From the NCBI GenBank assembly GCA_963845565.1, contig CAWJSJ010000002.1, positions 1,024,001-1,088,000 of the forward strand: a stretch of 64,000 nucleotides of DNA, written 5' to 3'. This document shows, piece after piece, positions 11,207 through 58,162 of the stretch (position 1 is its first letter; every line of letters begins with the position of its first letter). Below the pieces are notes generated by a model. It worked only from the letters and a program-made list of their open reading frames with translations. It was not told the origin of the DNA and searched no databases. The translations under genes and the position numbers were made by a program. The DNA comes from an uncultured Methylomirabilota bacterium (GTDB lineage Bacteria > Methylomirabilota > Methylomirabilia > Methylomirabilales > 2-02-FULL-66-22).

Positions 11207-12631
11207 ATGGAACGGCTGAGTCAGGAGCAAGGGCGAGCGCTTCGCGCGGCCGGAGCCGCGCCCGCGGCAGTCACGAAGTTTTCGCGCGCCCTCGACGCTC
11301 TGCGTCTGGCGGCGCGGTTGACCGGGAAGAGCCTGGCGGCTGACGCGCGGAAGGCCGGTGCGGTGTATGCGGGAGGCGCCGCGCTCCTGGCGGCCTGGCC
11401 GGCGAAGCCCCGGAGGGATGCCGTCCAGGCAGCGGGCGCGGAAATCGTGCACGGTCTCCTGCGGGCGGTGCGGAACCGATTCGCCCGGGCCTACGTGGGT
11501 CCGATCTACGACCGTGTGACCGAGCAGCGTCGGAGGTTTCTCCGCGCCGACGAGTTGGTCTACGCGGTGGCCGATCTCTGCCCCGGCCTCTGCCCGAGCC
11601 AGAAAGAGGTGGCGGCCGAACGCGGGCTGCTCCTTGCCGAGAAAGATGGGGTCGAGATCGCGCAGGGCGACTTCCTCTCGCACGTCTTCGTTCGCAAGGA
11701 GGCGGGAGACCACTTGCTGCATGCGATGCTCCAGCCGCTGCCGGCGTCGCAGGAGCTTCTGGCAAAGTTCCGGCGAGAGGGGCGGGTGGATCTCGGGACG
11801 GCCCACGTGGAGCGGCGCGGCGCGCTCGGGTGCGTGTTCTTCAATAACCTGCGCTACCTGAACGCCGAGGACGATACCACGGTCGGCCCCCTGGAGACCG
11901 CGATCGATCTGGTGCTGCTCGATTCCGACATCCAGGCGGGCCTGCTGCGGGGAAATCCGGTCACGCACTCCAAATACCGCGGTCGGCGAATCTTTTCCTC
12001 CGGGCTCAACCTGACTCACCTCTATCAAGGGAAGCTCCCGCTGCTTTTCTTTGCGACCAGGGATTTGGGGTTCGTCGGCAAGCTCTACCGGGGGCTGGCC
12101 GGCGACGAGTACGACCCCGACGGGCCCGAGGCCACCCTGGAGAAGCCCTGGATTGCGGCCGTGGAGGGGTTCGCCATCGGTGGCGGCTGCCAACTGCTCC
12201 TGGTCGTGGACTACGTGATCGCGGAAGCGGGGTCCTTCTTCAACCTCCCGGCCCGGAAAGAGGGGATCGTCCCTGGCGTGGCGCCCATTCGACTCCCGCG
12301 CTTCGTGGGGGAGCGGGCGACCCGGGAAGGGATCCTGTTCGACAAGACCTTCACCGCCGAGTCCCCGGAAGGGCGATCCCTTGCCAATGAGGTGGTCCCG
12401 GCCGGGCAAATGGACGAGGCCATCGCCCGCGCCGCGGCCGCCGTCACGGGCGGCGGCGTGATCAGCGCGGGGGCGAACCGCAAGGCCATCCGCCTCGGCC
12501 ATGAGCCCCGGGACCTCTTCCGGCAGTATATGGCCCTGTACTGTCGGGAACAGGCCACCTGCCAATTCAGCCCCACGCTGATCCGGAACCTCGAGCGCAA
12601 CTGGCGCGCAGCAGAACGGCCTCGGGAGTAG
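11207..12631 (+). CDS. DpgC-like crotonase-fold protein (3,5-dihydroxyphenylacetyl-CoA dioxygenase family)
   Basis: EKDGVEIAQGDFLS, YLNAED, KYRGRRIFSSGLNLTHL, EKPWIAAVEGFAIGGGCQLLL, LPARKEGIVPG. Confidence 0.8.
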   Translation: MERLSQEQGRALRAAGAAPAAVTKFSRALDALRLAARLTGKSLAADARKAGAVYAGGAALLAAWPAKPRRDAVQAAGAEIVHGLLRAVRNRFARAYVGPIYDRVTEQRRRFLRADELVYAVADLCPGLCPSQKEVAAERGLLLAEKDGVEIAQGDFLSHVFVRKEAGDHLLHAMLQPLPASQELLAKFRREGRVDLGTAHVERRGALGCVFFNNLRYLNAEDDTTVGPLETAIDLVLLDSDIQAGLLRGNPVTHSKYRGRRIFSSGLNLTHLYQGKLPLLFFATRDLGFVGKLYRGLAGDEYDPDGPEATLEKPWIAAVEGFAIGGGCQLLLVVDYVIAEAGSFFNLPARKEGIVPGVAPIRLPRFVGERATREGILFDKTFTAESPEGRSLANEVVPAGQMDEAIARAAAAVTGGGVISAGANRKAIRLGHEPRDLFRQYMALYCREQATCQFSPTLIRNLERNWRAAERPRE

Positions 12632-12672
12632 CGCCCACCCGACCCCGCGTCTTCCCGCCCCCCGCCACTATC

Positions 12673-12855
12673 TTGACAGCTACCAAGGGCCGGCGTAGAG
12701 TCCCTGCCAACGGCTCCGGCTCTCCCAGCTTTCAGCCGGGCCCACCCTCCTCCTCCTCGACTACGCACCCGACGGGCGAACCAGCCCGGCGTCGGTCCCT
12801 ACCAGGCATGGGTGCCGGGAGCGCGTGCCGCTTCTGGCGAGGCGTATTCCTTCGT
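12673..12855 (+). repeat. promoter plus structured-leader repeat, copy A
   Basis: TTGACA-N17-TAGAGT followed by about 150 nt similar to 22316-22500 and 20644-20740. Confidence 0.75.
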
Positions 12856-12961
12856 CGTGATTGCGGCAGGAGGTACCGGCGGAAACGTTGTCTCCACACC
12901 GACGTTCCCCACCACGTATGATTTTGCACGGGCGGCGGTACGTGCTCTCGAGGGGGTCCCT

Positions 12962-13549
12962 ATGGATCAATATTTGGTCTATCTTGTCACGGTGCTCGGG
13001 GTCGTGCTGTGCATGTTTTCGTTTGCCGTGATCTTCCGCGGCCAGCGCGTTCCGGGAGACGAAGGCAACCCGCAGGAACTGGAGTTCAAGGGCCTGAAAG
13101 TCAGAACGAACGTGGTCGTGTCGCTGCTCCTCGTGTCGGTCGTCGTGGCGGTGCTGCCGCTGGTTCTTCAGGCGTGGCCGCGGATTGTCGAGGCCCGCAG
13201 CCGAAGCTGTCCCGACCAGGTCGCGACGCCGGCGAAGCCGCAGGATCTCGCCCTATTCCTCACCGGACAGGTGCTGGACAACCAGGGGCCAGTGGAGGGC
13301 GCATCGGTGACCGTGGTCAACTTGAAGGACTCAAAACCCGGCGACCAGCAGGAGCCGGTGGCCAAGGTGGTGACAGACGGCAGCGGCAGCTTCGATTTCG
13401 CGCCCCTCCCCCTCAGTGACAGGGACCGCTACAAAGTGGTTGCGGCCAAAGACGGCTATATCGAGCAATACGTATACATGGGCCCAGCGGGGGCCGTCAC
13501 CGTGCGAACCGTGTTGGTGGCAAAGAAGAAGGGCGGAGGAAACCAATGA
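12962..13549 (+). CDS. 2-TM membrane protein with C-terminal carboxypeptidase-regulatory-like beta-sandwich
   Basis: two hydrophobic helices, then LTGQVLD..GPVEGASVTV...TDGSGSFDF...YKVVAAKDGY. Confidence 0.7.
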   Translation: MDQYLVYLVTVLGVVLCMFSFAVIFRGQRVPGDEGNPQELEFKGLKVRTNVVVSLLLVSVVVAVLPLVLQAWPRIVEARSRSCPDQVATPAKPQDLALFLTGQVLDNQGPVEGASVTVVNLKDSKPGDQQEPVAKVVTDGSGSFDFAPLPLSDRDRYKVVAAKDGYIEQYVYMGPAGAVTVRTVLVAKKKGGGNQ

Positions 13550-14379
13550 ACACGACGTCGTGGATGGGCGCCGCCGTGGTTGCGCTGGTGCTGATCGGCG
13601 GAGTGGCAGACGCGCAGCCGCTGGCGTCCCGCGTCGTATCGCAGCCTGACGGCGCCGAAATGGTTGTGGTGCCGGAAGGGTCGTTCACGTTCGGCGCAAA
13701 GCAGGAGGAGATCAAAGCGCTGCTCAAAAAGTTGAAGGCCGGCTGGGCCGACATCTACGCCGGTGAGCACAAGAAACAAACCGTGACGCTCCCGGCCTTC
13801 TACATCGATCGGCTCGAGGTCACCAACGAGCAGTACAACCGTTTCGTCGGCGCCGCCAAGGGCAAGCCCTCGCGCTTCGCTCGCTATCCCCAACTCAACG
13901 CACCGAAGCAGCCCGTCGTCGGCATCGGCTGGAAGGACGCCGAGGCGTATTGCCGTTGGTCGGGCAAGCGGTTGCCGACCGAGGAGGAGTGGGAAAAGGC
14001 GGCGCGCGGGACCGACGCCCGCACTTGGCCGTGGGGGAACGAGTCTGACGAGAAGGCGTTCAACGGGAAGGCCGCCGAGTATTCCGCCCCGGTCGCAGTC
14101 GGCAGCTTCCCGAGGGGCGACAGCACGTACGGCGCGGCGGACATGGCCGGAAACGTGTGGGAGATGACCTCCAGCACGTGGCAAGGCGACGCGAAAACGA
14201 TGCGCGGAGGGTCGTTCCTGAACCGTCTGGCCGACGTGCGCGTGACGGTGCGTTGGGCACCCGACGACCCGAGCCGAGGCACCAACTGGCTGGGCTTCCG
14301 CTGCGCCGTGGACGCGGGGATGGCACAAACGCTTTACGGAAAACCATCCCCCGCCGAACCGGCGAAGAAAGGGCCGTAG
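13546..14379 (+). CDS. exported FGE/SUMF1-fold (FGE-sulfatase domain) protein
   Basis: signal peptide; EVTNEQY, RLPTEEEWEKAARG, DMAGNVWE, RGGSF, GFRC; ATGA overlap with the upstream gene. Confidence 0.85.
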   Translation: MNTTSWMGAAVVALVLIGGVADAQPLASRVVSQPDGAEMVVVPEGSFTFGAKQEEIKALLKKLKAGWADIYAGEHKKQTVTLPAFYIDRLEVTNEQYNRFVGAAKGKPSRFARYPQLNAPKQPVVGIGWKDAEAYCRWSGKRLPTEEEWEKAARGTDARTWPWGNESDEKAFNGKAAEYSAPVAVGSFPRGDSTYGAADMAGNVWEMTSSTWQGDAKTMRGGSFLNRLADVRVTVRWAPDDPSRGTNWLGFRCAVDAGMAQTLYGKPSPAEPAKKGP

Positions 14380-14629
14380 GGGTGCGGGGGTGCCCTCTCG
14401 ACTGTGGGAGCCCAAGGGACCGCGGAATGCACATCAGAATCCATGGCCGCCTTTCATCAGAGTGTCCGGGATGATCCAGGGGCAACAGAAGCACTCGGAG
14501 ATGCGGGCCAGTGTGGGGCGGCGGCGCGGCTGCGAGTATTGAGCTGACGCCCGCCTGACCTTCTCGGCCGTAGGTTCTTTGTCGTCAAAGCGTTTTAGAA
14601 CCAACGTCCCCCGTGATGGAAAGGGGTAG

Positions 14630-17600
14630 GTGATGGGATCGGCGGCGAATGTCGAAGGTTCGCTCGGCGAGGCACCGCGACGGCGAGAGGATCTGCCCGA
14701 GGTCTCCGACGAGGCCGCTCAGGCCGCGCGAGAACAGGTTGCGCAGCGCACGTTCGTGCCGTCCACGCACCGGCCACCTGAGGAGGTGCTGCCCAATCCG
14801 GAATTCATCCGCATCCTCGACCAGGGGCAGGAAGGCGTCAGCGTCGGCGTCGCGTTGGCAGCGGTGCTCAACTATCTGCGCGCCGAGCAGGGCGAACGCG
14901 AGCCGGTCAGCCCGCGAATGCTGTACGAGTACGCGCGACTGTACGACGAATGGCGCGACGCCGATCACGAAGGCAGTTCGCTGGTCGGCGGCCTCGCCGG
15001 CCTGGTCCGCCACGGCGTATGCCTCGATACCGAATGGCCGCTGTATGACCCCAACCTCCGGCCCGACGCGGCTGCACTGAAGGCGGCGCTGACGAACCGG
15101 CCGGCCGCCGTGCTGCGAGTCGACAAACGCATTGAGCACCTGCGGGCCGCTGTGTTCGAGGACCACGCGGTCGTGGTGGCGGCGGAACTTCACGACGGTT
15201 GGCGGGAGCCGCTGCGCGGCGTGATCCCGTTTCGCGCCAAGCGCCGGGGGAAGGCTGCGACGCAGGGAAGCCACGCCTTCGCCCTGCTGGGCTATACCGC
15301 AGAGGGCTTCATCGTCCAGAATTCATGGGGCATGAACTGGGGCGGTGTCGAGCTGCGAGATCACCACCTGCCCGGGACCGCGATCTGGACCTACGACGAC
15401 GCGACGGCTCATCTTGTGGATGCCTGGGCGATCCAGCTGTCGCGCCGTCCCTACCACGCGCCGCTGGTTGGCTACGACGCCGATAGTCTGGAGGGGGACG
15501 ACCTGCTTGAGATCAAGGCCGAGGTGAACGCCTTCAGCTACGTGCTGGCGTCGCGCGCGATCAAGCCGCCGATGGCGTTGGGCCTGTTCGGCGACTGGGG
15601 CAGCGGGAAGTCGTTCTTCATGCAGGAGATGAAGAAGAAGATCGCGTCGCTCGCCGTGCTACCGGCCAAGCGCCCCGACAGCGGCGAGACGCGGTCGCCG
15701 TTCTGCCGCCAGATCGTACAGATCCGTTTCAACGCCTGGCACTACCTCGATACCGACTTGTGGGCAAGCCTGGTGACCGAAATCTTCGACGGCCTGTTCG
15801 CGGGCATCGGCGGCAAGACCGGTAAACCGGAGGAGAAGCTGCCCGAACTGGCGGTAGAACTGCAAAATGCCAACGGCGTGTACCAGCAGGCACGGCAGCA
15901 GTTGGAGGATGCGAAGACGGCGCGCGCGCGAGCGGAGGCCACGTTGCGGGACGCCGTCAAGGAGCGCGAGGACCGGGAGGTCGCGCTACGCACCCAGCTC
16001 AACGATCTGACGCAGTTGTTGAAGGACACGCCTGCCGTGAAAGCGCAGGTGGATCGGCTCGCCGCGGACCTCGGCATGCCCGAGATGAGAACGTCGTACC
16101 AGGCGCTCGATGCGCGGGCCACCGAGCTCAAGAGCATAACCCACGGGTTCACGGCATTGTTGCAGACGATGTTCTCGACGCCATGGGGCTGGCCACGACT
16201 GTTGTGGCTGATAGCAGCGATGTGCGCGCCAGTCCTGGTCGTGATGGGCATCGAGCTGCTGCGGTGGTGGTTTTCCGTGCCGATCGAACGCTTTCACGCG
16301 TTCGCAGTCCAGCTGAGCACGCTGCTGGCGGCCGTCACCGCCTGGCTGGGCGTGCAGGCCAAGCGCGGTGCGGGCGTGCTGGCCTCGTTGCGGGATGCGC
16401 ACCAGAAGCTGGAAGTGATCCGCGCCACGCGGCGAGCGGAGGCGGTGGCCAACCAGGAAGGCGCATTGCAGGCGCTGCGGGAGAAGGAAGACGCGGCCCG
16501 CAAGAGCATGCAGGATGCCGAGCAGCGCGTGCAGGCACTGCAACGCGAGATCGACGACCTGCAACCGGGACGATTGATCATGCGCTTCATCGAGGAGCGC
16601 ACCAAGTCGAGCGACTATCGCTCGCGGCTGGGGATCGTCAGCCTGGTGCGGCGCGACTTCGAGCGGCTGAGCGAGCTGGCCGACCCGGACTCCGACAAGC
16701 GCAACGCCGACGTGATGCCGGTGGAGCGGATCATCCTGTACATCGACGATCTGGACCGCTGCAAACCGGACCGCGTGATCGAGGTGCTGGAGGCGGTGCA
16801 CCTGCTGCTCGCCTTCCGGCTGTTCATGGTGGTGGTAGCTGTCGATCCGCGCTGGCTGCGCCGCTGCCTGGAAAAGCACTATCCCGACCTCCTGGCCCTC
16901 CGCACCCAGGAGGTGGCCACCGTGGCGCACGTGGTTCCGTCGCGTCCGGCCACGGCGCAGGACTATCTGGAGAAGATCTTCCAGATCCCGTTCACGCTGC
17001 AACCCCTGAAGGACGACGGCTACCGCCGGCTGATCCGCGGCCTGACCGAACAGAACCGCATGCCGGATACGCTCGTGCCGCTGGCAGGCCGTACGAGTGC
17101 GACCGGCGCTGCGCTATCCGCCACCGGGCAGGCAACGGCGGGCACCGAGAGCGGTCAGGCGCAAGGTATGCCGTTGTCTGCGGTGACGGATGTGATCAAG
17201 GCGCAGGCCAAGCAGGCATTGCGCGACCAGGCCACCGCGGAAGACACAGCCGAAAGCGAGGAAAGCGCCATCGAACGGCTGCGTATCCGCGCGTGGGAAC
17301 TGGACGATATGGAGCGCCTGGCGCCACTCTTCCACACGCCGCGTGCGGTCAAGCGCTTCGTCAACACCTATCGTTTCCTGCGTGCCGGGGTGCGGCAACA
17401 ATACCTCGGCCGCTTCGAAGGCGAACGGGACGAGCCGGGCACCTACCGCGCCGCGCTGACCTTGCTGGCAATCATCGTCAGCTACTCCAACGTCGCACCC
17501 CGCTTTCTGCGACGGATCCTCGATACCGCCGAGCGCGGCGCCTCGAAGCAGGGCTGGCTCGACTTCCTGCGAGACGCGCGGGCCGATGCCGTCAGCCTGG

Positions 17601-17887
17601 TGCACGACGCCGAAGACGGTGGGCCGGCGAGCGTGACTGTGCGCAGTACGAGCGGACGCTCGACCCGGAAAACGCCGGCCACACGGCCGCGCGAGGCGGG
17701 AGCGGGTCCGCTGCCGCGCAACTGGGAAGAGGTCGAGTGGCTTCAGTTGTGCGATGCGCTGCTCGGCGTGTCGAAGGATGAGTTCCCGGTGCGCGAGATC
17801 GGGGAGCTCGAAGAATGGGCTCACACCGTGGCGCGCTATTCATTCTCGCTGGGGCCCGTGCCGACGGTCGCTCACCCCGGCCGCTGA
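14630..17887 (+). CDS. papain-like (C1) domain fused to membrane-anchored KAP-family P-loop NTPase
   Basis: C1 motifs DQGQEGVS, SPRMLY, GSHAFALLGY, QNSWG; KAP motifs GLFGDWGSGKS, FNAWHY, coiled-coil plus 2 TM insert, YIDDLDRC, YLEKIFQIPF, TPRAVKRFVN. Confidence 0.85.
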   Translation: MMGSAANVEGSLGEAPRRREDLPEVSDEAAQAAREQVAQRTFVPSTHRPPEEVLPNPEFIRILDQGQEGVSVGVALAAVLNYLRAEQGEREPVSPRMLYEYARLYDEWRDADHEGSSLVGGLAGLVRHGVCLDTEWPLYDPNLRPDAAALKAALTNRPAAVLRVDKRIEHLRAAVFEDHAVVVAAELHDGWREPLRGVIPFRAKRRGKAATQGSHAFALLGYTAEGFIVQNSWGMNWGGVELRDHHLPGTAIWTYDDATAHLVDAWAIQLSRRPYHAPLVGYDADSLEGDDLLEIKAEVNAFSYVLASRAIKPPMALGLFGDWGSGKSFFMQEMKKKIASLAVLPAKRPDSGETRSPFCRQIVQIRFNAWHYLDTDLWASLVTEIFDGLFAGIGGKTGKPEEKLPELAVELQNANGVYQQARQQLEDAKTARARAEATLRDAVKEREDREVALRTQLNDLTQLLKDTPAVKAQVDRLAADLGMPEMRTSYQALDARATELKSITHGFTALLQTMFSTPWGWPRLLWLIAAMCAPVLVVMGIELLRWWFSVPIERFHAFAVQLSTLLAAVTAWLGVQAKRGAGVLASLRDAHQKLEVIRATRRAEAVANQEGALQALREKEDAARKSMQDAEQRVQALQREIDDLQPGRLIMRFIEERTKSSDYRSRLGIVSLVRRDFERLSELADPDSDKRNADVMPVERIILYIDDLDRCKPDRVIEVLEAVHLLLAFRLFMVVVAVDPRWLRRCLEKHYPDLLALRTQEVATVAHVVPSRPATAQDYLEKIFQIPFTLQPLKDDGYRRLIRGLTEQNRMPDTLVPLAGRTSATGAALSATGQATAGTESGQAQGMPLSAVTDVIKAQAKQALRDQATAEDTAESEESAIERLRIRAWELDDMERLAPLFHTPRAVKRFVNTYRFLRAGVRQQYLGRFEGERDEPGTYRAALTLLAIIVSYSNVAPRFLRRILDTAERGASKQGWLDFLRDARADAVSLVHDAEDGGPASVTVRSTSGRSTRKTPATRPREAGAGPLPRNWEEVEWLQLCDALLGVSKDEFPVREIGELEEWAHTVARYSFSLGPVPTVAHPGR

Positions 17888-17966
17888 CCCGGTGGGCAGC
17901 GCTGGCGCAGCCTGGGCGTTTCAGGGTGGGATCCTTAGGGTGACGGAGATTCTCGGAGGGAGAACA

Positions 17967-19134
17967 GTGACGCAAGCGGAGATGACGCCACGGGAGCGCG
18001 TGAAGGCGGCCCTCAACCACCAGGAGCCCGATCGGGTGCCTCTGGATCTCGGCCAGGCGGTCGGCGACGGGATCACCCTGACCGCCTACCGGAACCTCCT
18101 TGCCCATCTGGGGATGAGCGATAAGATGGTCCAGGTCAAGGACAAGCGCGGGCAGACGGCCCGCGTGGACGAGGAGATCCTGCGACGATTCCACATCGAC
18201 TTCCGGGGGGTCGGGTTGGGCGCCCCGGAGCGCTGGAAGGATCGCTGGCTCGACGAGCGTACCTTCGAGGACGAGTGGGGCGTGGTGCGGACCATGCCCA
18301 AGGACTCCTACTATTTCGACCTGGTCGGCTCCCCGCTGGCGGAAGACGGAAGCCTCTCGGCGCTCGAGACGTACCGCTGGCCGGACCCGATGGATCCCGG
18401 GCGCTTTCGCGGCCTGCGTGAACGGGCGCAACACCTTCATCGGGAGACGGACTACGCCGTCGTGGTGGATCTGAACTGCGCCTTCTTTCTCCGCTGCTGC
18501 GAATTGCGCGGCTGGGAGAACTTCTACATGGACATCGTGGCGAACGTTCCGTTCGCCGAGGCCTTGATGGACCGCTTCCTGGAGATCCGCCTCGCCATCG
18601 CCGAGCGCGCGCTGCAGGAGGTGGGGGAGGACGTGGACATCGTCATGGTGACCAGCGACGACCTCGGGGGCACGGATAGTCCACTCATCTCGCCGGCGCT
18701 CTACCGGTCATTGATCAAGCCCCGGCAGCAGCGCACCTTCGATTTCTTCCGGGCCCGCACCGGGGCCAAGCTCTACTACCACACCGACGGCGCCATCTAC
18801 CCGCTGCTCCCCGATTTCGTCGATTTGGGGGTGGACATCCTGAACCCGGTCCAGGTGTCCGCGGACGGGATGGGCGACACGCAGAAGCTGAAGCGAGAGT
18901 TCGGCGACAAGTTGACCTTCTGGGGCGCCATAGACACCCACCAGGCTCTCCCGTACGGCACCCCCGAGCGACGTTCGCGAGGAGGTCCGCCGCCGGATCC
19001 GGGACCTGGGCCCGGGTGGCGGGTACGTCGTCTGCCCGGTCCACAACATCCAGCCCGAAGTGCCCCCCGCGAACGTCGTCGCAATGTACGAGAGCGCCTA
19101 CGAGCTGGGCCGGTATCCGCTCCGACTCGAATAG
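17967..19134 (+). CDS. uroporphyrinogen decarboxylase / MtaA-CmuA family protein, +1 frameshift near 18969
   Basis: MTPRERV..ALNHQEPDRVP, SDDLG, YHTDG, LNPVQ, FWGAID; the C-terminus GGGYVVCPVHNIQPEVPPANV continues in a shifted frame to TAG 19134. Confidence 0.8.
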
Positions 19135-19219
19135 CCGGATCCCCGAGCACTGCGGTCATGGTGGGATTCCGAGATTTCCGCCGAAATAGGGAATGCCGAA
19201 TGAGCGAGGCGAGGCGCGG

Positions 19220-19633
19220 TTAGGTGCGAACGGGGGCGATGATCGCTACGGAAGGAAAGTAGGTCCGGTAGCGCCGGGTATCCCGCGTGAGCAATTGCAG
19301 TCCGGCCACCGCGGCGTGGGCGCCGATGAAGAAGTCGGGCAAGGGCGTGATTTTGCTTCCCTTTCGCTTTCGGTATCGCAGGAAGGCCTTCCCAGCCAGG
19401 AACGCCGCTTCGAGCGGGATCGGGAGCCGAGGAAACGACTCTGCAGGAAGCACCCCTTCCATCTCCTCGATGGTCGCGACCGCGATCGAGACCTCCGCAT
19501 AGATGATCGGATTGATGTAGAGGGGCCCCTCATCGGCGCACTGCGCCAGCGCGGTGGACGACCACGCGTACCACCGGGCGTCCTCGGTGAGCACGTCCAG
19601 GATGACGTTGCTGTCCACCAGGGTCCCCGCCAT
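19220..19633 (-). CDS. vapC: PIN-domain toxin
   Basis: LVDSNVILD, IIYAE, PDFFIGAHA, LLTRD..RYRTYFP. Confidence 0.9.
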   Translation of the reverse strand: MAGTLVDSNVILDVLTEDARWYAWSSTALAQCADEGPLYINPIIYAEVSIAVATIEEMEGVLPAESFPRLPIPLEAAFLAGKAFLRYRKRKGSKITPLPDFFIGAHAAVAGLQLLTRDTRRYRTYFPSVAIIAPVRT

Positions 19634-19860
19634 CACCGACCCCGTGTGAGCGCCATGATCTCATCGGTCGTCATGCGGACCGTGGCCCGCCCGCGCAGGC
19701 GCTCCACAACTCGCTTCCCCCGCACTTGACTTCGTTTCGTGGGGACGAGCGTCACCACATTGCCTTCCACCGCGAACTCCACGTCGGTACCGGGGTGAAT
19801 GGAGAGCCGCTCGCGGATCTCCAGGGGAATGGTGACCTGCCCTTTCGTCGTGACTCTCAT
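19633..19860 (-). CDS. AbrB/MazE/SpoVT-family antitoxin
   Basis: MRVTTKGQVTIP..IRE; TGATG coupling to vapC. Confidence 0.9.
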   Translation of the reverse strand: MRVTTKGQVTIPLEIRERLSIHPGTDVEFAVEGNVVTLVPTKRSQVRGKRVVERLRGRATVRMTTDEIMALTRGR

Positions 19861-19870
19861 ATTCTTCTCC

Positions 19871-19915
19871 ATTCTTACCGGTAAGAATAATACTCCACAA
19901 GGAACAACTCGTCAA
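19871..19915 (-). promoter_or_regulatory. vapBC promoter with palindromic operator
   Basis: minus-strand TTGACG-N17-TATTAT; perfect 18-bp palindrome ATTCTTACCGGTAAGAAT at 19871-19888. Confidence 0.75.
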
Positions 19916-19943
19916 ACCACACTCCGTCAGGGGGGACGGCGTT

Positions 19944-19978
19944 TCCTATGACTCTCAGTTACCGGCGGAGAGTCTGCG
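19944..19978 (+). repeat. junction repeat family 2, short copy
   Basis: TCCTATGACTCTCAGTTACCGGCGGAGAGTCTGCG resembles 23186-23220 and 21031-21058. Confidence 0.6.
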
Positions 19979-19995
19979 CCTTGCCTTATCAAGGC

Positions 19996-20030
19996 TTGCC
20001 AAGATCGGACCGCGTGATTACAATGTAATC
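19996..20030 (+). promoter_or_regulatory. mazEF promoter with palindromic operator
   Basis: TTGCCA-N17-TACAAT; palindrome GATTACA-A-TGTAATC (20016-20030) covers the -10 box. Confidence 0.75.
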
Positions 20031-20049
20031 CCTGAAGGGAGGATGAGCC

Positions 20050-20307
20050 ATGCGAGCACGCGTTGTGCGGATCGGGAATTCACGGGGAGTACGCATCCCC
20101 AAGCCGCTCATCGAACAGGTTGGCCTACAGGACGAGGTCGAGATTGCCGTGGAAGGCAGCAGCCTGATCATCCGCGCCGCTGCGCGCCCCCGCGCGGGCT
20201 GGGCGACGGCGTTCCGGATGATGGCCGAGCGGGGAGACGATCGGCTACTGGACGTTGCCGGAGGCTCGACGACCAAGTGGGACGAGGACGAATGGGAATG
20301 GAAGTGA
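20050..20307 (+). CDS. mazE: MazE/AbrB-family antitoxin
   Basis: RIGNSRGVRIPK; acidic DEDEWEW tail. Confidence 0.88.
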   Translation: MRARVVRIGNSRGVRIPKPLIEQVGLQDEVEIAVEGSSLIIRAAARPRAGWATAFRMMAERGDDRLLDVAGGSTTKWDEDEWEWK

Positions 20308-20621
20308 ACCGATTCGAGGTCTACCTGGTCACCCTCGACCCGACCCTGGGAAGCGAGATCCAGAAGACCCGCCCGTGCCTGGTGGTGTCGCCCGACGAAA
20401 TGAACCACCACATCCGGACGGTCATCGTCGCCCCCATGACCACAAAAGGGCAACCCTATCCCACCCGCGTCCCCTGCCGGTTCAAGGGCAGGGCGGGCCA
20501 GATCGTCCTCGACCAGATCCGGACCGTGGACAAAACCCGGCTCGTCCGCCGTCTCGGCCGCCTCGACCCCAAGACCGGGATGAAGGTCCTCGCCGTCCTC
20601 GCTGAACTCTTCGCCCCGTAG
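20298..20621 (+). CDS. mazF: MazF/PemK endoribonuclease toxin
   Basis: LDPTLGSEIQKTRPCLVVSPDEMN, DQIRTVDKTRL. Confidence 0.92.
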   Translation: MEVNRFEVYLVTLDPTLGSEIQKTRPCLVVSPDEMNHHIRTVIVAPMTTKGQPYPTRVPCRFKGRAGQIVLDQIRTVDKTRLVRRLGRLDPKTGMKVLAVLAELFAP

Positions 20622-20643
20622 TTTCTTCTTTGACAACGGCTTA

Positions 20644-20740
20644 CTACGACTACGCGCCTGATGGGCCGATGAGCCCGTGATCGTTTTCCACCACGCATGA
20701 TCTCGTGGAGTACGCACCGCTCCTGGCTGGGCGGATTCTC
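20644..20740 (+). repeat. structured-leader repeat, copy B (5'-truncated)
   Basis: CTACGACTACGCGCCTGATGGGCCGATGAGCCCGTGATCGTTTTCCACC..., nearly identical to 22400-22495. Confidence 0.8.
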
Positions 20741-20794
20741 GCCGTCTGAAGGGCGCTTGCTAAATACGGAAACTTCGGCCATGGTCGTTCTGAT

Positions 20795-20926
20795 ATGAAG
20801 AGACGCCGACGTTACAAGATGCATCTCGTGGTCAATGGGCGCTCGATCGAGGAAGTGGTGACTGACCCCCACTACGAGGTCAAACACTCCGAAATCGACG
20901 ACGAGCCCATCTGCTTTCGGAGGTAG
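20795..20926 (+). pseudogene. short ORF, possibly an internally deleted gene remnant
   Basis: 43 aa MKRRRRYKMHLVVNGRSIEEVVTDPHYEVKHSEIDDEPICFRR, protein-like composition in lower-GC DNA. Confidence 0.3.
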
Positions 20927-21030
20927 TGTGCAGGAAGGCCCCTCGGAAGAAGACCGCGATCAGCACCGGCACGCCGTTAGGTTCACAGCGCTTTGGAACA
21001 TGCGCTTCCCCTGATATGCATTGAAACGTC

Positions 21031-21115
21031 TGACTCCTGGTTACACGCGGAGAGCCTGTTGCTGATAAGAGGTGAAGGGAGGCAACGAGTCATGGGACGC
21101 AAGGTCCCCCATGAC
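21031..21115 (+). repeat. junction repeat family 2 with terminal hairpin
   Basis: TGACTCCTGGTTACACGCGGAGAGCCTG...GTCATGGGACGCAAGGTCCCCCATGAC. Confidence 0.65.
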
Positions 21116-21158
21116 AGCATAATGGACAAAGAGACGACCATATGCTAAATACAGTCCC

Positions 21159-22319
21159 ATGATAAGACGACCGTACTGGATCGAGCGGATTCATGCCGCC
21201 TGGAAGAAGCGGCCCATCGTCTGGCTCGCGGGCGTGCGCAGAGCCGGCAAGACCACGCTGGCCAGGATGCTTCCTGAGGCCGTCTACCTGAACTGCGACC
21301 TGCCGTCCGTGCTCCATCGGCTCGAAGACCCGGAGCTGTTCTATCGCTCCCTCTCGAAAGGAGCCACGGTCGTCTTCGACGAGGCGCACCGGCTGCCCGA
21401 CCCGGCACAGGTCCTCAAGATCGGCGCTGATGCGTTCCCTCGACTCCGTCTTTTGGCGACGGGCTCGTCCACCCTCTCGGCAACCCGCAAGTTTCGCGAC
21501 ACCCTGGCAGGCCGCAAAACGCTCTTGCCCTTGCCGCCGATTCTCTGGCCGGAGTGCGAGGCCGAATTCGCAGTGAGGGACCTAGACCGCCGCCTCTTTC
21601 GCGGTGGGCTTCCCGAGGCCCTTCTCGCGGACGAGCCAGATGCCGCCTCTTACGCGGAATGGCTGGACAGTTTCTACGCCCGCGACATCCAGGAGTTGTT
21701 TGGCATCCGGGAGCGCACGGGCTTTCTCAATCTCCTCCGCCTGATGCTTCGGCAAAGCGGCGGTCTTGTCGACTACTCGGCCCTGTCGCGCGAATGCGAT
21801 CTCAGCCGGGCGACCGTGAAATCCCACCTCGAAGCCATGACCGTCGCCTGCGCCCTGATCCCGGTTCCGCCTTTCCACGGGGGTGGCCGGCGAGAGTTGG
21901 TCCGTCGCCCGAAGGTCTACGCCTTCGACACGGGGTTCGTGGCCTACGCCCGCGGCTGGCAAGACCTGCGCGCCGAGGACCGCGGGCCGCTCTGGGAGCA
22001 CCTGGTCCTGGACGTGTTGCGCACGGCCCACGAAGGCCAAGAGGTGGCGTACTGGCGGGACAAATCGGGGCGGGAGGTGGATTTCGTCATCCCGCGGGGC
22101 CGACGGGTGGACACCTACGAGTGCAAGATGACTCCTGGGCGGTTCGACCCTGAATCCCTCAAGGTTTTCCGGTCCCACTATCCCGACGGGGAGAACTTCC
22201 TGGTTACACCCGGAATCGAGAGCCCTTACGACCACACATTCGAGGGCCTCGTCGTCCGCGTCACCGGCTGCCGCGACCTGCTGCTCCGAACGATACGACC
22301 GACCGCGGCTCATTCTTGA
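21159..22319 (+). CDS. AAA_14 ATPase with DUF4143 (PD-(D/E)xK-like) C-terminus
   Basis: GVRRAGKTTL, VFDEAH, TGSS, PKVYAFDTG, YWRDKSGREVDFV..YECK. Confidence 0.88.
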   Translation: MIRRPYWIERIHAAWKKRPIVWLAGVRRAGKTTLARMLPEAVYLNCDLPSVLHRLEDPELFYRSLSKGATVVFDEAHRLPDPAQVLKIGADAFPRLRLLATGSSTLSATRKFRDTLAGRKTLLPLPPILWPECEAEFAVRDLDRRLFRGGLPEALLADEPDAASYAEWLDSFYARDIQELFGIRERTGFLNLLRLMLRQSGGLVDYSALSRECDLSRATVKSHLEAMTVACALIPVPPFHGGGRRELVRRPKVYAFDTGFVAYARGWQDLRAEDRGPLWEHLVLDVLRTAHEGQEVAYWRDKSGREVDFVIPRGRRVDTYECKMTPGRFDPESLKVFRSHYPDGENFLVTPGIESPYDHTFEGLVVRVTGCRDLLLRTIRPTAAHS

Positions 22320-22500
22320 CAGCCCCGAAGGGCCGGCGTAGAGTCCCTCGCAACGGTTCCGGCCATCCCATCTCTTTGCCGGGCCGCCCTTCAGCCCTCC
22401 TACGACTACGCGCCTGACGGGCCGATGAGCCCGTGATCGTTTTCCACCAGGCATGATCTCACGGAGTGCGTGCCGCTCCTGGCTGGGCAAATTCCTACGT
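22316..22500 (+). repeat. promoter plus structured-leader repeat, copy C
   Basis: TTGACA-N17-TAGAGT (the -35 overlaps the ATPase stop codon) followed by a leader similar to copies A and B. Confidence 0.8.
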
Positions 22501-22590
22501 AGCCATCGTGGTAGGGGTTGTCGGCAGAACCGATGTCTGCACGCCACCGTTCGCCAACGCACGGAAACGACAGAGGCTCGGTCCCCCACG

Positions 22591-23101
22591 ATGAAGACCA
22601 AGTCCTTGCTCGGCGGTTTCGTGCGACGCGCTTGTGATCTGGGAGCCATCGAGGCGAAGGTCATCCGGGCGGACTCGGTCGTCACGGCGCCCTGGGTGCG
22701 GCTGAAGTGCCAGTTCGGCTGCGGCGGTTGGGGCTCCAATCTGTGCTGCCCGCCACATACGCCGACACCCGAGGAGACCGCCAAAGTGATCGCCTGCTAC
22801 ACGCAGGCCCTCCTGATTCACTGCCGGGGGAATAAACGGCCGACGAAGATCGTGGCGGCGCTGGAGCGCGAGATCTTCCTGTCCGGTTTCTACAAGGCCC
22901 TGGGCTTCGGCGCGGGACCGTGCCGGCTGTGCAAGGACTGTAACCTCGCGGGGTGCATGCGACCCGACGACGCCCGACCAGCCATGGAGGCCTGCGGCAT
23001 CGACGTCTTCGCCACCGCCCGCGCCAACGGCTTCCCGATCGAGGTGGTCACAGGACGCGTCGTGCGAGGACAACTACTACGGCCTCGTCCTGATCGAATA
23101 G
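22591..23101 (+). CDS. DUF2284 Cys-rich metal-binding protein, +1 frameshift near 23052
   Basis: WVRLKCQFGC...CCPP, GAGPCRLCKDC, RPAMEACGIDVFAT; C-terminus DNYYGLVLIE-stop lies in a shifted frame. Confidence 0.75.
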
Positions 23102-23185
23102 ACCCCGCCGTCAGTCGGGTTCGAATCCGTGGTGGGGAAGCAGAAGGGACTCGAACGCATGCGCCAGCCACGCCATGGGGTTGTA

Positions 23186-23293
23186 TCCTATGACGCCTGG
23201 TTACGAGCGGAGAGTCTGCGGCTGCTGAGAGGAGAAAGGAGAAAGGTAGTCGTGGGACGCAACGGCCGGGTCCCCCATGACGTCCCCCATGAC
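23186..23293 (+). repeat. junction repeat family 2, long copy with duplicated GTCCCCCATGAC
   Basis: aligns with 21031-21115 and 19944-19978. Confidence 0.65.
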
Positions 23294-32987: not shown

Positions 32988-34089
32988 TTAGTCGAAGCTG
33001 ACGATCTCCACCCAGTTCGAATCCTTGCCCGTCGGGTACTTTTCAAGCAGCGTGAGCGCGCCGTTCGCCTCGATCGCGTAGACCGAGATCGTGTCCGACA
33101 GCTCACCGCTGACGACCATGAACTTGCCATTGGGATCGATGCGGAAGCCGCGCGGCTGCTTCTCGATCGGCGTGCTCGCGAGATAGGTGAGCTTGCCGGT
33201 GGCCGCGTCGACGCTGAACGCGCCGATCGTGCTGCTGGTGCGCTCCGCGGCGTACAGGAACTTGCCGTCGGGTGTCAGGTGCAGGTCGGAGGCCCAGATG
33301 TCGTTCGACACGTCGCGCGGCGTCTGACCCTCCCCGGCCGGGCCGCGCGGCGCGCCCGGCTGGAGCTTGCTGTCCGGCGGCAGGACCGATGCCTCGCTCA
33401 CCTCGCGGAGCAGGCCCGTCTTCTGGTCGAGCGACAGGGTGGTGACCGTGGCCGTCAGTTCGTTCAGCAGGTACGCGAACTTGTTGTCGCCGGAGATGAT
33501 GATGTGACGCGGGCCGGTCCCGGCCTTCATCTGGACGACCGGCGGCGTGTTCGCCGTCAGCTTGCCGGTCTTCGCGTCGAAGCGGAACTGGAAGATCTGG
33601 TCGGTGCCGAGGTGCGGCACGTAGACGAAGCGGTTGGTTCTGTCGGTGATGATGGAGTGTGCATTGCGGGCCGTGGGGATCACCTGCAGTGGCTCGGACA
33701 CCTGGCCGTCCTTGCCGATGGGGTTGACGCTGACCAGGTGGCCGCCGTAGGACGCGCCGAGGAGGTACCGCCCGGTCTTGTCCACGTGGATGTAAGGGAG
33801 ACTCTCGGCGAGCGGTCCCTCCGAGAGCGCGCTTCAGCGCGCCCGTCTTGCGGTCGATCGCGTAGGTGACCACCGTGTAGGGCTTGGCGCGGACCGCGGC
33901 AAAGAGGAACCGCTTGTCCGGGCTGACGCTCATCGGCCTCACCAGCTTGCCCGCCTCGACGCGCCCCCCCGGCTTCAACGTGCCGTCGCTCTCCATCGTG
34001 TACATCCCGATGTCGCCGTCTTCGGCGTTCGACACATAGACATAGGTCGCCGCGTGCGCGGTGCCCCGAGTCGTGATGCGCGCTGACAA
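32988..34089 (-). CDS. lactonase / 6-phosphogluconolactonase-family beta-propeller, copy 2 (+1 frameshift near 33829, shortened signal peptide)
   Basis: YVYVSNAEDG, ARNAH, GPRH, WASDLHLTPDGKFLYAAERT, QPRGF; close paralogue of the adjacent gene. Confidence 0.8.
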
Positions 34090-34099
34090 GGCAACCTCC

Positions 34100-35239
34100 T
34101 TATTGGGCGAAGCTGACGATCTCCACCCAGTTCGAGTCCTTGCCCGTCGGATACTTGTTCAGGAGCTTGAGCGCGCCACTCGCCTCGATCGCGAAGACGG
34201 AGATCGTGTCCGACTGCTGGCCACTGACGACCATGAACTTGCCATTGGGGTGGATGCGGAAGCCCCGGGGCTGCTTCTCGACCGGCGTGCTCGACAGATA
34301 CGTCAGCTTGCCGGTGGCCGCGTCGACACTGAACGCGCCGAGCGTGCTGCTGGTGCGCTCGGCGGCGTACAGGAACTTGCCGTCGGGTGTCAGGTGCAGG
34401 TCGGAGGCCCAGATGTCGTTCGACACGTCGCGCGGCGCCTCACCCTGCCCTGCCGGGACGCGCGGTACGCCCGGCTTCAGCTTGGAGTCCGGCGGTAGCG
34501 CCGAGGCTTCGCTCACCTCGCTGAGCAGGCCCGTCTTCTGGTCAAGCGACAGCGTGGTCACCTTGGCCGTCAGTTCGTTCAGCAGGTACGCGAACTTGTT
34601 GTCGCCGGAGATGATGATGTGGCGGGGGCCGTACCCGGCCTTGATCTGGACGGTCGCCGGAGTGTTCGACGTCAGCTTGCCGGTTTTTGCGTCGAAGCGG
34701 AACTGGAAGATCTGGTCGGTGCCGAGGTGCGGCACAAACGCGTACTTGTTGGTCTTGTCGGTGATGATGGCGTGCGCGTTGCGAGCGGTCGGGATCACCT
34801 GGTTTTCCGCGCCCACCTTGCCGTCCTTGCCGATGGGGTTGACGGTGACCAGGTGGCCGCCGTAGGACGCGCCGAGGAGCCACCGGCCGGTCTTGTCGGC
34901 GTAGATGTATGGGTGGCTCTCGATGAGCGTCCCCTTCGACACCTGCTTCAGCGCGCCCGTCTTGCGGTCAATCGCGTAGGTGATCGCCGTGTAGGGCTTT
35001 GTGCGGACCGCGGCGAAGAGGAACCGCTTGTCCGGGCTGACGCTCATCGGCATCACCAGCTTGCCCGCCTCCACAAAGGCTCCCTGCTTCATCGTGCCGT
35101 CGCTCTCCATCGTGTACATCCCGATGTTGCTGTCCTCGGCGTTCGACACATAGACATATGTTGCCGCGTGCGCGGCCCCGGCGGCCATGATGAGCAGAGA
35201 CAAGGCGACCCCCTTGACCAGGTTGGCGAATGCGGTCAT
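34100..35239 (-). CDS. exported lactonase / 6-phosphogluconolactonase-family beta-propeller, copy 1
   Basis: signal peptide ending AHA-A; same motifs as copy 2. Confidence 0.88.
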   Translation of the reverse strand: MTAFANLVKGVALSLLIMAAGAAHAATYVYVSNAEDSNIGMYTMESDGTMKQGAFVEAGKLVMPMSVSPDKRFLFAAVRTKPYTAITYAIDRKTGALKQVSKGTLIESHPYIYADKTGRWLLGASYGGHLVTVNPIGKDGKVGAENQVIPTARNAHAIITDKTNKYAFVPHLGTDQIFQFRFDAKTGKLTSNTPATVQIKAGYGPRHIIISGDNKFAYLLNELTAKVTTLSLDQKTGLLSEVSEASALPPDSKLKPGVPRVPAGQGEAPRDVSNDIWASDLHLTPDGKFLYAAERTSSTLGAFSVDAATGKLTYLSSTPVEKQPRGFRIHPNGKFMVVSGQQSDTISVFAIEASGALKLLNKYPTGKDSNWVEIVSFAQ

Positions 35240-35758: not shown

Positions 35759-36895
35759 ATGCCGCTCGACAATCTTCGTTTCACGGTGCTGCTTGCGCTT
35801 TCCCTGCACGCCGCGTTTGCCGGCGTCCGCGTCAACCTGTCGCTGTTCGCGCTCAGCCTGCACGCCTCACCATTCACGGTCGGCTTGATCCTTTCGCTGC
35901 TCGCCCTGCTGCCGACGCTGTTCTCGGTGCACGCGGGACGCATCATCGACCACATCGGCGTGCGCCGGCCGCTCCTGGCCGGCACCGCATCCGTCATCTG
36001 CGGCATTGCGCTCGCCTTCCTCGTGCCGCGGCTCGAAATGCTGTTTCTGGTGAGCTGTCTCGTCGGCTCGGGGTTCATGCTGGTTCATATCGCGGTCAAC
36101 CACATGGCGGGCGGGATGGGCCCGCCGCAGGACCGTGCCATGAATTACAGCCTGCTCGCGCTTGGGTTTTCCACGTCTGGTTTTCTCGGGCCGATGATCG
36201 CCGGCTTTGCGATCGACTGGATCGGGCACCGCCGCACGTTCCTGCTGCTCGGAGGCTTCGCGCTGCTGACGCTGGTCGGATTGCTCGCCCGGCGCGTGGA
36301 GATCCCACGACATCAAGCTCCTGAGCCGACCGGCGAGAAACCGCGCCTGAGCGACTTGTTCAGGAACCGCACGTTGCGCTACGTGTTCCTGGCGAGCGGC
36401 GTGCTGTCGCCGGCCTGGGACTTGTTCACGTTCGTGGTGCCGATCCATGGCTCGCAGATCGGCCTGTCGGCGACGGAGATCGGCATGATTCTCGGCGCCT
36501 TCGGCGCGGCGATTTTTGTCGTGCGTCTGATGGTGCCGTTGCTCCTGCACCGCGTCGGCGAGTGGCGGATGCTGATCGTCGCGATGCTGTCGGCGGGCAC
36601 GACCTACTTCGCGTTCCCGCTGGTCCACGGCATGCCGCTCTTGCTGACGTTCGCGTTCGTTCTCGGCATGGGCCTGGGCGGCGCGCAGCCGATGATCATG
36701 TCGCTGCTCTCCGCCAAGGCGCCGCCGGGCCGCGCCGCCGAAGCCATCGGCGTGCGTTCGCTGATCATCAACATGAGCCAGACCGGGATGCCGCTGCTCT
36801 TCGGGGCGCTCGGTGGGGCACTCGGCATGACCCCGGTGTTCTGGGCCATGGCGGTGTGCCTCGTGGTCAGCGGCACAATCGCGCGAAAGCGGTAG
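35759..36895 (+). CDS. MFS transporter
   Basis: about 12 hydrophobic helices; GRIIDHIGVRR motif A. Confidence 0.88.
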   Translation: MPLDNLRFTVLLALSLHAAFAGVRVNLSLFALSLHASPFTVGLILSLLALLPTLFSVHAGRIIDHIGVRRPLLAGTASVICGIALAFLVPRLEMLFLVSCLVGSGFMLVHIAVNHMAGGMGPPQDRAMNYSLLALGFSTSGFLGPMIAGFAIDWIGHRRTFLLLGGFALLTLVGLLARRVEIPRHQAPEPTGEKPRLSDLFRNRTLRYVFLASGVLSPAWDLFTFVVPIHGSQIGLSATEIGMILGAFGAAIFVVRLMVPLLLHRVGEWRMLIVAMLSAGTTYFAFPLVHGMPLLLTFAFVLGMGLGGAQPMIMSLLSAKAPPGRAAEAIGVRSLIINMSQTGMPLLFGALGGALGMTPVFWAMAVCLVVSGTIARKR

Positions 36896-37065
36896 CAGGC
36901 TGCTGAAAAAGGCCCATCTGCTGCGTTGGAGCGCCTCGCCGCTCGCTGCGGCGTACCCCCAGTACGCCTGGACCCAGCTGCGCTGGGTACCCCGGCCTCC
37001 GGCGTGCCGCCTTGCATCTGGGCCTTTTTGAGCAGCCTGGGAAAAAACGGGTCTTTCAGCATCCT
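36896..37065 (+). mobile_element. MITE family 1, copy 1
   Basis: CAGGCTGCTGAAAAAGGCCCATCTG...CATCTGGGCCTTTTTGAGCAGCCTG inverted ends; starts right after the TAG stop. Confidence 0.8.
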
Positions 37066-43532: not shown

Positions 43533-43667
43533 CAGGCCGCCGCAGGCCGCTGAAAACGGCCCATCTGCGGCGTTGGTCCGCTTGGGTGCTCGCTGCGGCG
43601 TACCTGAAGTACGCCTCACTCGGCCCTGCGCGTACCGCCTGGCATCTGAACCGTTTTGAGCGGCCTG
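43533..43667 (+). mobile_element. MITE family 1, copy 2
   Basis: CAGGCCGCTGAAAACGGCCCATCTGCGGCGTTGG...GTTTTGAGCGGCCTG right after the pncB TAG; a further fragment at 43724-43743. Confidence 0.75.
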
Positions 43668-43766
43668 CTCGCTCTCGATTCGTTTGGTCGTTTGTGAAGC
43701 TATCGGGTGCTGGTCGACCCGCACGGCCCATCTGCGGCGTACCGGGCTATGTCCTGGAGATTTCGC

Positions 43767-55157: not shown

Positions 55158-55854
55158 GATCCGGCACATCTCCGTCTTTTACGGCGACGTGCAGGCGGTC
55201 AAGGACGTCTCGCTCGTGGTCGAGGAGGGCACCATCGCCGTGCTGCTCGGACCCAATGCCGCGGGGAAGAGCACGACGCTGCGCGCCGTCAGCGGCGTGC
55301 TGAAGGTCCGCACGGGGGAGATCCTGCTGGACCGGACGCCCATCCACAATCGCCCGGCGTACGAGATCGTGGAGCGGGGCGTGATCCACGTGCCCGAGGG
55401 ACGGGGGCTCTTCGGCTCGCTGACGGTCCGGGAGAATCTGGCGCTCGGAGCCTACACGACGAAGGCGCGCCGGGAGGCGCCGACGAACCTCGAGAAGGTC
55501 TTCACACTCTTCCCGCGGCTCAAGGAGCGCCAGCGGATGCCGGCCCGATCGCTCTCCGGAGGAGAGCAGCAGATGTGCGCGATCGCCCGCGGCCTGATGG
55601 CGTGCCCGCGCATATTGATGGTGGACGAGATGTCCCTCGGGCTGGCGCCGATCCTGGTGCGCGCCATGTTCGACACGGTGCGGACCATCGCCCAGGCAGG
55701 ACTCACCGTCCTCTTGGTAGAGCAGGCCGTGCACCGCTCGCTGCAGGTGGCGAAGACCGCCTTCATCCTCGAAAACGGCCGGACCGTCCTGGCCGGCCCC
55801 GCGGACGAGCTGTCGCGGCACGAGCACGTCAAGCGCGTGTACCTCGGCGTCTAG
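55150..55854 (+). CDS. livF: Liv-type ABC ATPase
   Basis: GPNAAGKST, VPEGR, LSGGEQQM, SLGLAP. Confidence 0.88.
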   Translation: MLEIRHISVFYGDVQAVKDVSLVVEEGTIAVLLGPNAAGKSTTLRAVSGVLKVRTGEILLDRTPIHNRPAYEIVERGVIHVPEGRGLFGSLTVRENLALGAYTTKARREAPTNLEKVFTLFPRLKERQRMPARSLSGGEQQMCAIARGLMACPRILMVDEMSLGLAPILVRAMFDTVRTIAQAGLTVLLVEQAVHRSLQVAKTAFILENGRTVLAGPADELSRHEHVKRVYLGV

Positions 55855-56006
55855 CAGGCCGCTCAAAAAGGCCCATCTGCGGCGTTGGAGCGCCTTGCCG
55901 CTCGCTGCGGCGTACCTCCAGTACGCCTCGCTCGGGCATCGGCACTCCGCCTTGCATCTGGGCCTTTTTGAGCGGCCTGGACGAAAATGAGTTTGTTGGT
56001 ATCCTG
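55855..56006 (+). mobile_element. MITE family 1, copy 3
   Basis: CAGGCCGCTCAAAAAGGCCCATCTG...CTTTTTGAGCGGCCTG plus outer end; bounded by TAG on both strands. Confidence 0.8.
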
Positions 56007-57930: not shown

Positions 57931-57991
57931 GTTCTCCTCCCTTCGATGATCTTCCCGCCGCACGGTATCCAATGCGGATCGCGCCGTCAGG

Positions 57992-58162
57992 CGGGATGTC
58001 GAAAAACCGGTCTTCACCCAGGCTGCTCAAAAAGGCCAGATGCAAGGCGGCGCGACCCATCCTGTGGATGGGTGCCCGAGGCCGAGTGAGGCGTACTCCA
58101 GGTACGCCGCAACGAGTGCCTGAGCGAGCCAACGCAGCAGATGGACCTTTTTCAGCAGCCTG
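57992..58162 (-). mobile_element. MITE family 1, copy 4
   Basis: reverse copy starting right after the dctP TAG (CAGGCTGCTGAAAAAGG...). Confidence 0.8.

Follow-up and report, generated by a model that had tools for sequence, protein, structure and literature searches.

The window analysed here is a stretch of 64,000 nucleotides from the genome of an uncultured Methylomirabilota bacterium (contig CAWJSJ010000002.1, positions 1,024,001 to 1,088,000; genome G000). It holds an island of accessory genes, with a DpgC-like gene, a membrane/FGE pair, a KAP NTPase, a URO-D gene, toxin-antitoxin (TA) pairs, an ATPase and a DUF2284 gene, and among these genes lie three copies (A, B and C) of a repeat that combines a sigma70-type promoter with a hairpin-bearing leader (Table 1). 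An earlier note on this DNA had read the copies as a novel cis-regulatory RNA or small RNA (sRNA), or as a portable promoter driving captured genes. Our comparisons point to the second of these, and suggest that the copies derive from a ~440-bp element built from the terminal inverted repeats (TIRs) of TIRtrons, in which a TIRYT transposase gene (TnpA-Y1 subclass 2.1) lies between two TIRs.

Copies A and C begin with TTGACA-N17-TAGAGT, just as described earlier, with hexamers at 12673-12678 and 12696-12701 in A and at 22316-22321 and 22339-22344 in C, at 17-bp spacing in both. The three hairpins and the conserved GACTACGC were also located where the note had placed them, and each copy follows a gene end and precedes a different cargo: the DpgC-like gene stops at 12631, the MazF gene at 20621, and the stop codon of the ATPase lies inside the TTGACA of C. 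A and C are 74% identical across 243 bp (E 3.8e-36), and B and C 91% identical across 95 bp (E 2.5e-31). B, taken to keep only the 3′ half, does lack the spacer and the −10 box but retains a relic of TTGACA; and the limits given for the copies, while marking real copies, were too narrow, as homology continues for ~55 bp up to a TIR relic. The BLASTN count that the note had proposed gave three copies in the 5.36-Mb genome and no further significant one (two other matches, E 0.34 and 0.63), and in a profile search of the genome A, B and C were the sole pieces. All three are 5′-truncated pieces that represent the 3′ part of the element.

Table 1. Features of the accessory island around copies A, B and C (positions in the window)
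Feature	Position	Strand	Remarks
DpgC-like crotonase-fold gene, upstream of A	11210..12631	+	downstream of an element copy in L024/L056/L062
Copy A	12660..12910	+	last 250 bp (3′) of the element, with the promoter, the leader and a relic of the right TIR; 5′ TIR modules lacking
Promoter of A, sigma70-type TTGACA-N17-TAGAGT	12673..12701	+	start predicted near 12708-12709
Leader of A, three small hairpins	12712..12837 (12712-42, 12773-88, 12802-37)	+	weak signs of selection
Decayed right TIR of A	12883..12910	+	identical at 21/26 positions to the L173 TIRtron's right TIR
Cargo of A: carboxypeptidase-regulatory-like-domain membrane protein, then FGE-sulfatase domain protein	12962..14379	+	
Lone TIR	14585..14612	+	identical at 24/26 positions to a TIR of G000's intact TIRtron (C2:326.7-327.8 kb); rearrangement joint at the tip
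KAP-family P-loop NTPase cargo	14630..17887	+	weak QatA similarity, under cut-off
Two TA pairs upstream of B	19220..20621	−, +	PIN/AbrB-type on −, MazE/MazF on +
Copy B	20626..20740	+	TTGACA relic (20630-35) fused by deletion to mid-leader; −10 box and TIR lacking
43-codon remnant open reading frame after B	20795..20926	+	homologues after the xdh-like operon in G009 and twice in L074
AAA_14/DUF4143 ATPase between B and C	21159..22319	+	stop codon overlaps the −35 box of C
Copy C	22300..22555	+	carries the promoter (22316-44) and the leader hairpins; right TIR (22528-55) strongly decayed
DUF2284 cargo of C	22591..23193	+	

The full element is ~440 bp long (about 435-447 bp). Alignment of metagenome stretches placed its start ~210 bp upstream of TTGACA, with two TIR modules at the left, an inverted TIR at the right and, between them, the sigma70 promoter, which points outward through the right TIR. 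Copy C, used as query, had matches in 8 of 20 same-genus genomes, often clustered, and a fuller copy had matches in 12 of the 20. Six of 230 other genomes of the phylum had matches, of 24-38 bp only, and a covariance model gave no convincing match outside the genus (best E 2.6e-4). Searching metagenomes for the promoter pattern returned 47 stretches in 46 loci; in the wider range of genome_contigs the promoter pattern was found at two loci and the leader pattern at none. We left out L004 and L005, and likewise the matches from genus g5 (L014-L016), which have only the promoter shape in common; in these g5 loci, a similar promoter precedes a conserved leader with a resemblance to c-di-AMP riboswitches. 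An unpublished genome (G028) enters the tallies only. The copies have diverged to a median pairwise identity of 66% (553 pairs), and the interior has no three-base periodicity, 72 of 107 deletions in it are of 1 bp, and transitions dominate the divergence. Truncation is common: among 73 non-redundant pieces 22 start at the left end, 27 end at the right end and 15 start within 20 bp upstream of the −35 box, and many copies are cut 40-60 nt past that box. A coding relic (no codon periodicity), a tRNA or tmRNA fragment serving as island att site (none detected by ARAGORN) and a phage origin (no matches in viral_contigs) were considered and rejected. On a contig labelled as a metagenome-assembled genome of another phylum (L029), a DpgC end and the element are 92-96% identical to the window, which suggests misbinning or transfer.

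The ends of the element led us to the TIRtrons. In G000, Y1_Tnp genes of ~330 aa are flanked on both sides by inverted repeats, and the intact ones encode Y1_Tnp together with a helix-turn-helix (HTH) domain; across the genus, a TIR pair was found for 60 of 71 TIRYT genes, 34 of the 60 beginning GGGACGTT. The left tip of the element consensus matches the TIR of L158 at 25/28 positions, the second left module, ~58 bp inside, matches that of L145 at 26/32, and the right end, in inverted orientation, matches the TIRs of L156 and L149 at 25/28. Shuffles that kept the shared 9-base core reached these scores in 0 of 60 trials for each of the three modules, and 52 windows from the interior scored at most 20, 22 and 20, respectively. 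The TIR motif of the element, GGGGACGT, agrees with the published GGGGWSAS in the first six letters only. Tandem duplication of the tip was seen at 27 of 103 ends of TIRtrons and at 5 of 17 left ends of the element, compared with 43/2804 control sites in the genome. At the level of sequence, this shows the ends to be TIRtron TIRs and the interior to be non-coding. Something close to a match with an insertion-sequence end, which the earlier note had named as a finding that would speak against it, is thus present in the TIRtron TIRs bounding the element, which it had not seen. G000 itself contains four to five near-full TIRYT genes (L082-L085, and L086 at C2:326.7-327.8 kb), every one flanked by a TIR pair of its own and frequently with a leaderless promoter abutting the left TIR; Y1_Tnp matches were present in 21 of 21 genomes of the genus.

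Along the element, the hexamers of the promoter are preferentially retained. In nine metagenome copies that had not been selected by the promoter pattern, 102 of 107 hexamer positions match, compared with 1403 of 1771 (79%) elsewhere (Fisher p 8e-6, a value that overstates the difference because the copies are related). A promoter-free model gave 27 matches with E <1e-4; leaving out one at a contig start, 16 of the 26 genus copies keep at least 10 of the 12 hexamer positions and three more have TTGACA-N17-TACATA. In two copies (G006:C285, G019:C68) the spacer sequence has drifted, yet both boxes and the 17-bp spacing persist. Statistically, the boxes are shown to be under what appears to be purifying selection. 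The next called gene is co-oriented with the element in 26 of 32 cases, another 22 of 54 being uncalled (11 without a call, 11 with too little sequence) by a codon model that was trained on G000 and missed foreign genes. With the hexamers selectively retained, the downstream genes mostly co-oriented and the cargo shuffled, the proposal of a portable promoter placed before captured genes is supported, and the genes would be transcribed from it. In public RNA runs 5-14% of the words are present, and contigs from two of these runs overlap portions of the region (with a piece that spans 12725-13420); such contigs give neither start, strand nor level and may contain DNA.

Copies tend to occur together, and the genes between them are reassorted. 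At loci with several pieces, all the pieces lie on one strand (17/17, some loci overlapping), and many clusters occupy one hot spot between an xdh-like operon and mocA/xdhC-like genes, an interval that measures 33 kb in G000 and is shorter elsewhere (~13, 10 and 6 kb in G006, G020 and L040/L067, respectively). The cargo of the arrays includes TA, HNH, AlbA and DNA-methylase genes. In eight pieces a truncated copy is followed by a BrnT-type TA unit, and the upstream contexts of these pieces are of at least five kinds. The DpgC-like end and the element are followed by the membrane/FGE pair in the window and by BrnT in L012, L065 and L072, and DpgC is found on the downstream side of a copy in L024, L056 and L062. 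In L074 the 5′ half of C is joined to the 3′ half of B, so that the ATPase now stands before the cargo of B. Crossover positions in other pairs, read by eye, are scattered along the element, as expected of homologous exchange; a single fixed crossover site in the promoter block was rejected, since the pairs switch at varied positions. A different kind of joint was mapped at CCAACGTCCCC, where three arrangements meet: the lone TIR of the window is followed by the KAP gene; L066, with the same left side, has an element copy at this place; and in G009 that copy is preceded by a different TIR. Common to the differing left sides are the 11-base tip and a partial TIR likeness only. A joint of this kind is the trace expected if an enzyme worked on the tip; among 199 tips there is one such case, and it depends in part on a metagenome contig. 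By comparison of loci, then, co-oriented copies are shown to accumulate in accessory islands, where they appear to be joints of cargo reassortment through crossovers within the repeat and exchange at TIR tips.

The best reading of these data, in our view, is a genus-specific, non-coding element assembled from the TIRs of TIRtrons. We think it probable, with room left for doubt, that it is a TIRtron-derived, non-autonomous element acting as promoter and joint, similar to a MITE (a miniature transposable element with inverted repeats), and shaped by both TIRYT action and homologous exchange. Cutting and rejoining at the tips would be the task of a TIRYT supplied in trans; the remaining events would arise between direct copies, through slippage or the homologous recombination of the host. 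Incoming genes would acquire a ready promoter, which may be why truncated copies tend to retain it. A, B and C would be eroded leftovers of this joint-forming process.

Several observations, besides the kinship of the copies mentioned above, weigh against this reading. At right element ends the tip duplication was seen in just 2 of 20 cases. The TIRs of TIRtrons form matched pairs, whereas left module 1 matches the right TIR at only 17/25 positions and module 2 at 12/25; given this mismatch, the element as a whole may never have been mobile. Target-site duplications and empty sites, which the earlier note had suggested looking for, did not turn up: duplication is absent in four full-length copies (to our knowledge, it is not expected of HuH transposases), and 75 pieces compared with the fetched loci and G000 gave no empty site, four rows being internal deletion variants. 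There is no TIRYT gene within the 64-kb window, and L074 and L066, on which two of the rearrangements depend, are metagenome contigs and possible misassemblies. The interior had no significant match to TIRYT coding DNA, 26-32 of 1000 shuffles being as good (113-117 of 1000 when composition-corrected). In pairwise tests of the interior against TIRYT 7, 35 and 46 of 60 shuffles were equally good, and 7 of 100 in another, while a TIRYT protein profile run on 396 translations of the element reached a best E of 0.06. A decayed TIRYT gene as the source of the interior, for which minus-strand peptide look-alikes were suggestive, was rejected as unproven, the DNA profile not rising above shuffles.

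The possibility raised by the earlier note that the conserved promoter drives a functional structured RNA, a leader or sRNA of ~200 nt carried within the TIR-bounded unit, deserves separate consideration. The three helices proposed there rank 1-3 of 18 consensus helices by pairing kept (0.87, 0.88 and 0.87, compared with 0.60-0.84), RNAalifold recovered them from 33 copies, and stem positions are 88% conserved compared with 75% at other G/C positions. Paired cells amount to 87.3%, compared with 85.1% in shuffles (0/500), a control that kinship of the copies can beat. Within stems C>T changes outnumber G>A (63 to 32), but the C>T excess is found outside stems as well, and the covariation term was 0.06. 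The folding energies of A and C are no better than those of shuffles (z −0.33 and −0.28), two-sided changes occur in 15 cells, the same as in slid controls (12-18), and 71 of 561 cells are broken. Where the note had seen conserved stems with differing loops, the family as a whole has loops that do not vary freely and stems that are kept less than strictly. The search of Rfam 15 that it had proposed gave no element match at the gathering score and elsewhere only E 2.5-9.8, so no known family was hit. The many copies cut 40-60 nt past the −35 box also speak against an RNA function, as does the lack of convincing covariance-model matches outside the genus. The cargo is unrelated: 35 neighbouring proteins belong to many unrelated Pfam families or to none, with no consistent downstream gene class. 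Hairpin 2 was considered as a terminator and rejected, being flagged in B and C only, with the T-run absent from the consensus. We therefore view a functional structured RNA as decidedly improbable; the leader seems to be under mild selection at most, and not to be a ligand-binding or trans-acting RNA, and a new riboswitch or small RNA is probably not what the element represents.

Two further alternatives accept the TIRs and differ in what the element does. It could be a patchwork that formed long ago by chance from a host promoter and TIRtron scars, was locally duplicated and is now only decaying, as its mismatched TIRs, transition-dominated divergence, heavy truncation and absence from 8 of the 20 same-genus genomes searched by BLAST, a closed one included, would suggest. 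Such a passive relic would hardly explain why both hexamers and their spacing are selectively kept despite spacer drift, or why left ends carry copy-specific tip duplications, and we consider it unlikely, if still worth keeping in mind. Conversely, the element could be the working unit of a dedicated gene-cassette system run by a HuH transposase, with TIRYT in the role of an integron integrase, the TIR tip as recombination site for single-strand swaps and the promoter as the equivalent of Pc, through which accessory and defence genes would be captured, expressed and reordered at a fixed hot spot in the chromosome. The co-oriented arrays of element and cargo, a common pool of cargo units in differing orders, the exchange at an 11-bp tip (a length at which RecA does not recombine efficiently), the conserved hot spot and the TA, HNH, AlbA and DNA-methylase cargo are all in line with this. 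It is opposed by the scattered crossovers in other pairs, the truncation of most copies at varied points, the lack of a TIRYT at the hot spot in G000, the single three-way tip exchange among 199 tips and the median copy identity of 66%, and in our estimation a dedicated system is rather unlikely. A true integron cassette array, with attC sites or attI and Pc, would also place TA pairs and unrelated small genes in tandem, but an attC-like RYYYAAC...GTTRRRY pattern was not found at 10-24 kb of the window, and the sole IntI over the cut-off lies ~600 kb off (C2:1646488) with no element copy there; we regard this explanation as highly implausible. That integrase gene (G000:C2:1646488-1647432, over the TIGR02249 cut-off) is unrelated to the island. 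The best reading and its rivals partly overlap, and the likelihoods we assign to them do not sum to one.

Other features of the window were recorded along the way. A second three-copy repeat, confined in the window to the same island (19941-19981, 21021-21107, 23181-23267) and present in L074 too, ends near GGGACG/GTCCC motifs. Relics similar to TIRtron TIRs (19-21 of 26) lie at 26760, 26874, 26920 and 28672, on the edge of a TRAP transporter block (23.5-26.7 kb) whose GC content is low (52-55%). The 43-codon reading frame after B had no NCBIfam match. URO-D (18967-18969) and DUF2284 (23051) appear frameshifted; since public contigs are one base shorter there, these may be assembly errors or strain-specific breaks. 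An abundant and unrelated ~170-bp repeat with inverted ends (36895-37065, 43542-43693, 55854-56005, 57991-58171), with ~190 BLAST matches across the genome at E 1e-8, resembles an ordinary dispersed MITE, and a gene pair is duplicated in tandem at 32988-35215 (period 1114 bp, 87-90% identity).

Among described systems the closest is the TIRtron/TIRYT layout (Di Nocera et al. 2013, PMC3733652), equated with TnpA-Y1 subclass 2.1 by Quentin et al. (2018, PMC6006769); gene-less TIR repeats, as dimers or clusters, also appear in the available text of PMC3733652. The element shares with TIRtrons its ends, which are the GGGGACG-headed TIRs of the TIRYT genes of the genus, akin to GGGGWSAS. It differs in lacking the transposase (no Y1 HuH with C-terminal HTH lies between its TIRs), in having, instead of a matched pair, three TIR modules that come from different subfamilies, and in its ~330 bp of unrelated interior, its selected outward promoter and its arrays interleaved with cargo genes. 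MITEs with sigma70 promoters are known, such as the Correia element, MITEAba12 and QMITE1, and according to the sections at hand of a review (PMC10969869) they are, like the element, short, non-coding, TIR-bounded, able to drive neighbours from their promoter and hot spots of homologous recombination. The element also resembles MITEs in sharing its ends with autonomous units, here TIRtrons, and in its imperfect repeats. Unlike MITEs, its cognate enzyme would be HuH/Y1 and not a DDE transposase, it shows no target duplication, and it occurs as 3-6 clustered, co-oriented copies ~66% identical rather than as many dispersed, near-identical ones. The likeness to integrons is functional only, in that a promoter precedes interchangeable accessory genes at a fixed locus; the element lacks attC and a linked IntI, most units have the promoter, and crossovers do not fall at one site. 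TnpA-REP of the same subclass has been reported beside prochlorosin genes, where local diversifying recombination was proposed (bioRxiv 10.1101/2020.03.09.984088), a causal claim that the preprint's own note withdraws; that case concerns one gene family and, in the text available, no promoter-bearing repeat. A literature search, judged mostly from listings, with subscription journals thinly covered and supplements excluded, brought up no paper on a promoter-bearing repeat with TIRtron ends or on this element.

A three-copy repeat resembling a new structured RNA can thus be the relic of a mobile element. Here, TIRYT ends appear built into a promoter-bearing repeat at the joints between shuffled accessory genes; one junction was narrowed down to 11 bp. 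In the literature consulted, no demonstrated function is reported for TIRYT transposases, and the element provides concrete substrates, namely specific TIRs and an intact cognate enzyme in the same genome, for testing TIRYT-mediated gene capture and expression. If the cassette system described above were true, a Y1 enzyme would be running an analogue of the integron, and the widespread, uncharacterised TnpA-Y1 subclass 2.1 would gain a first function.

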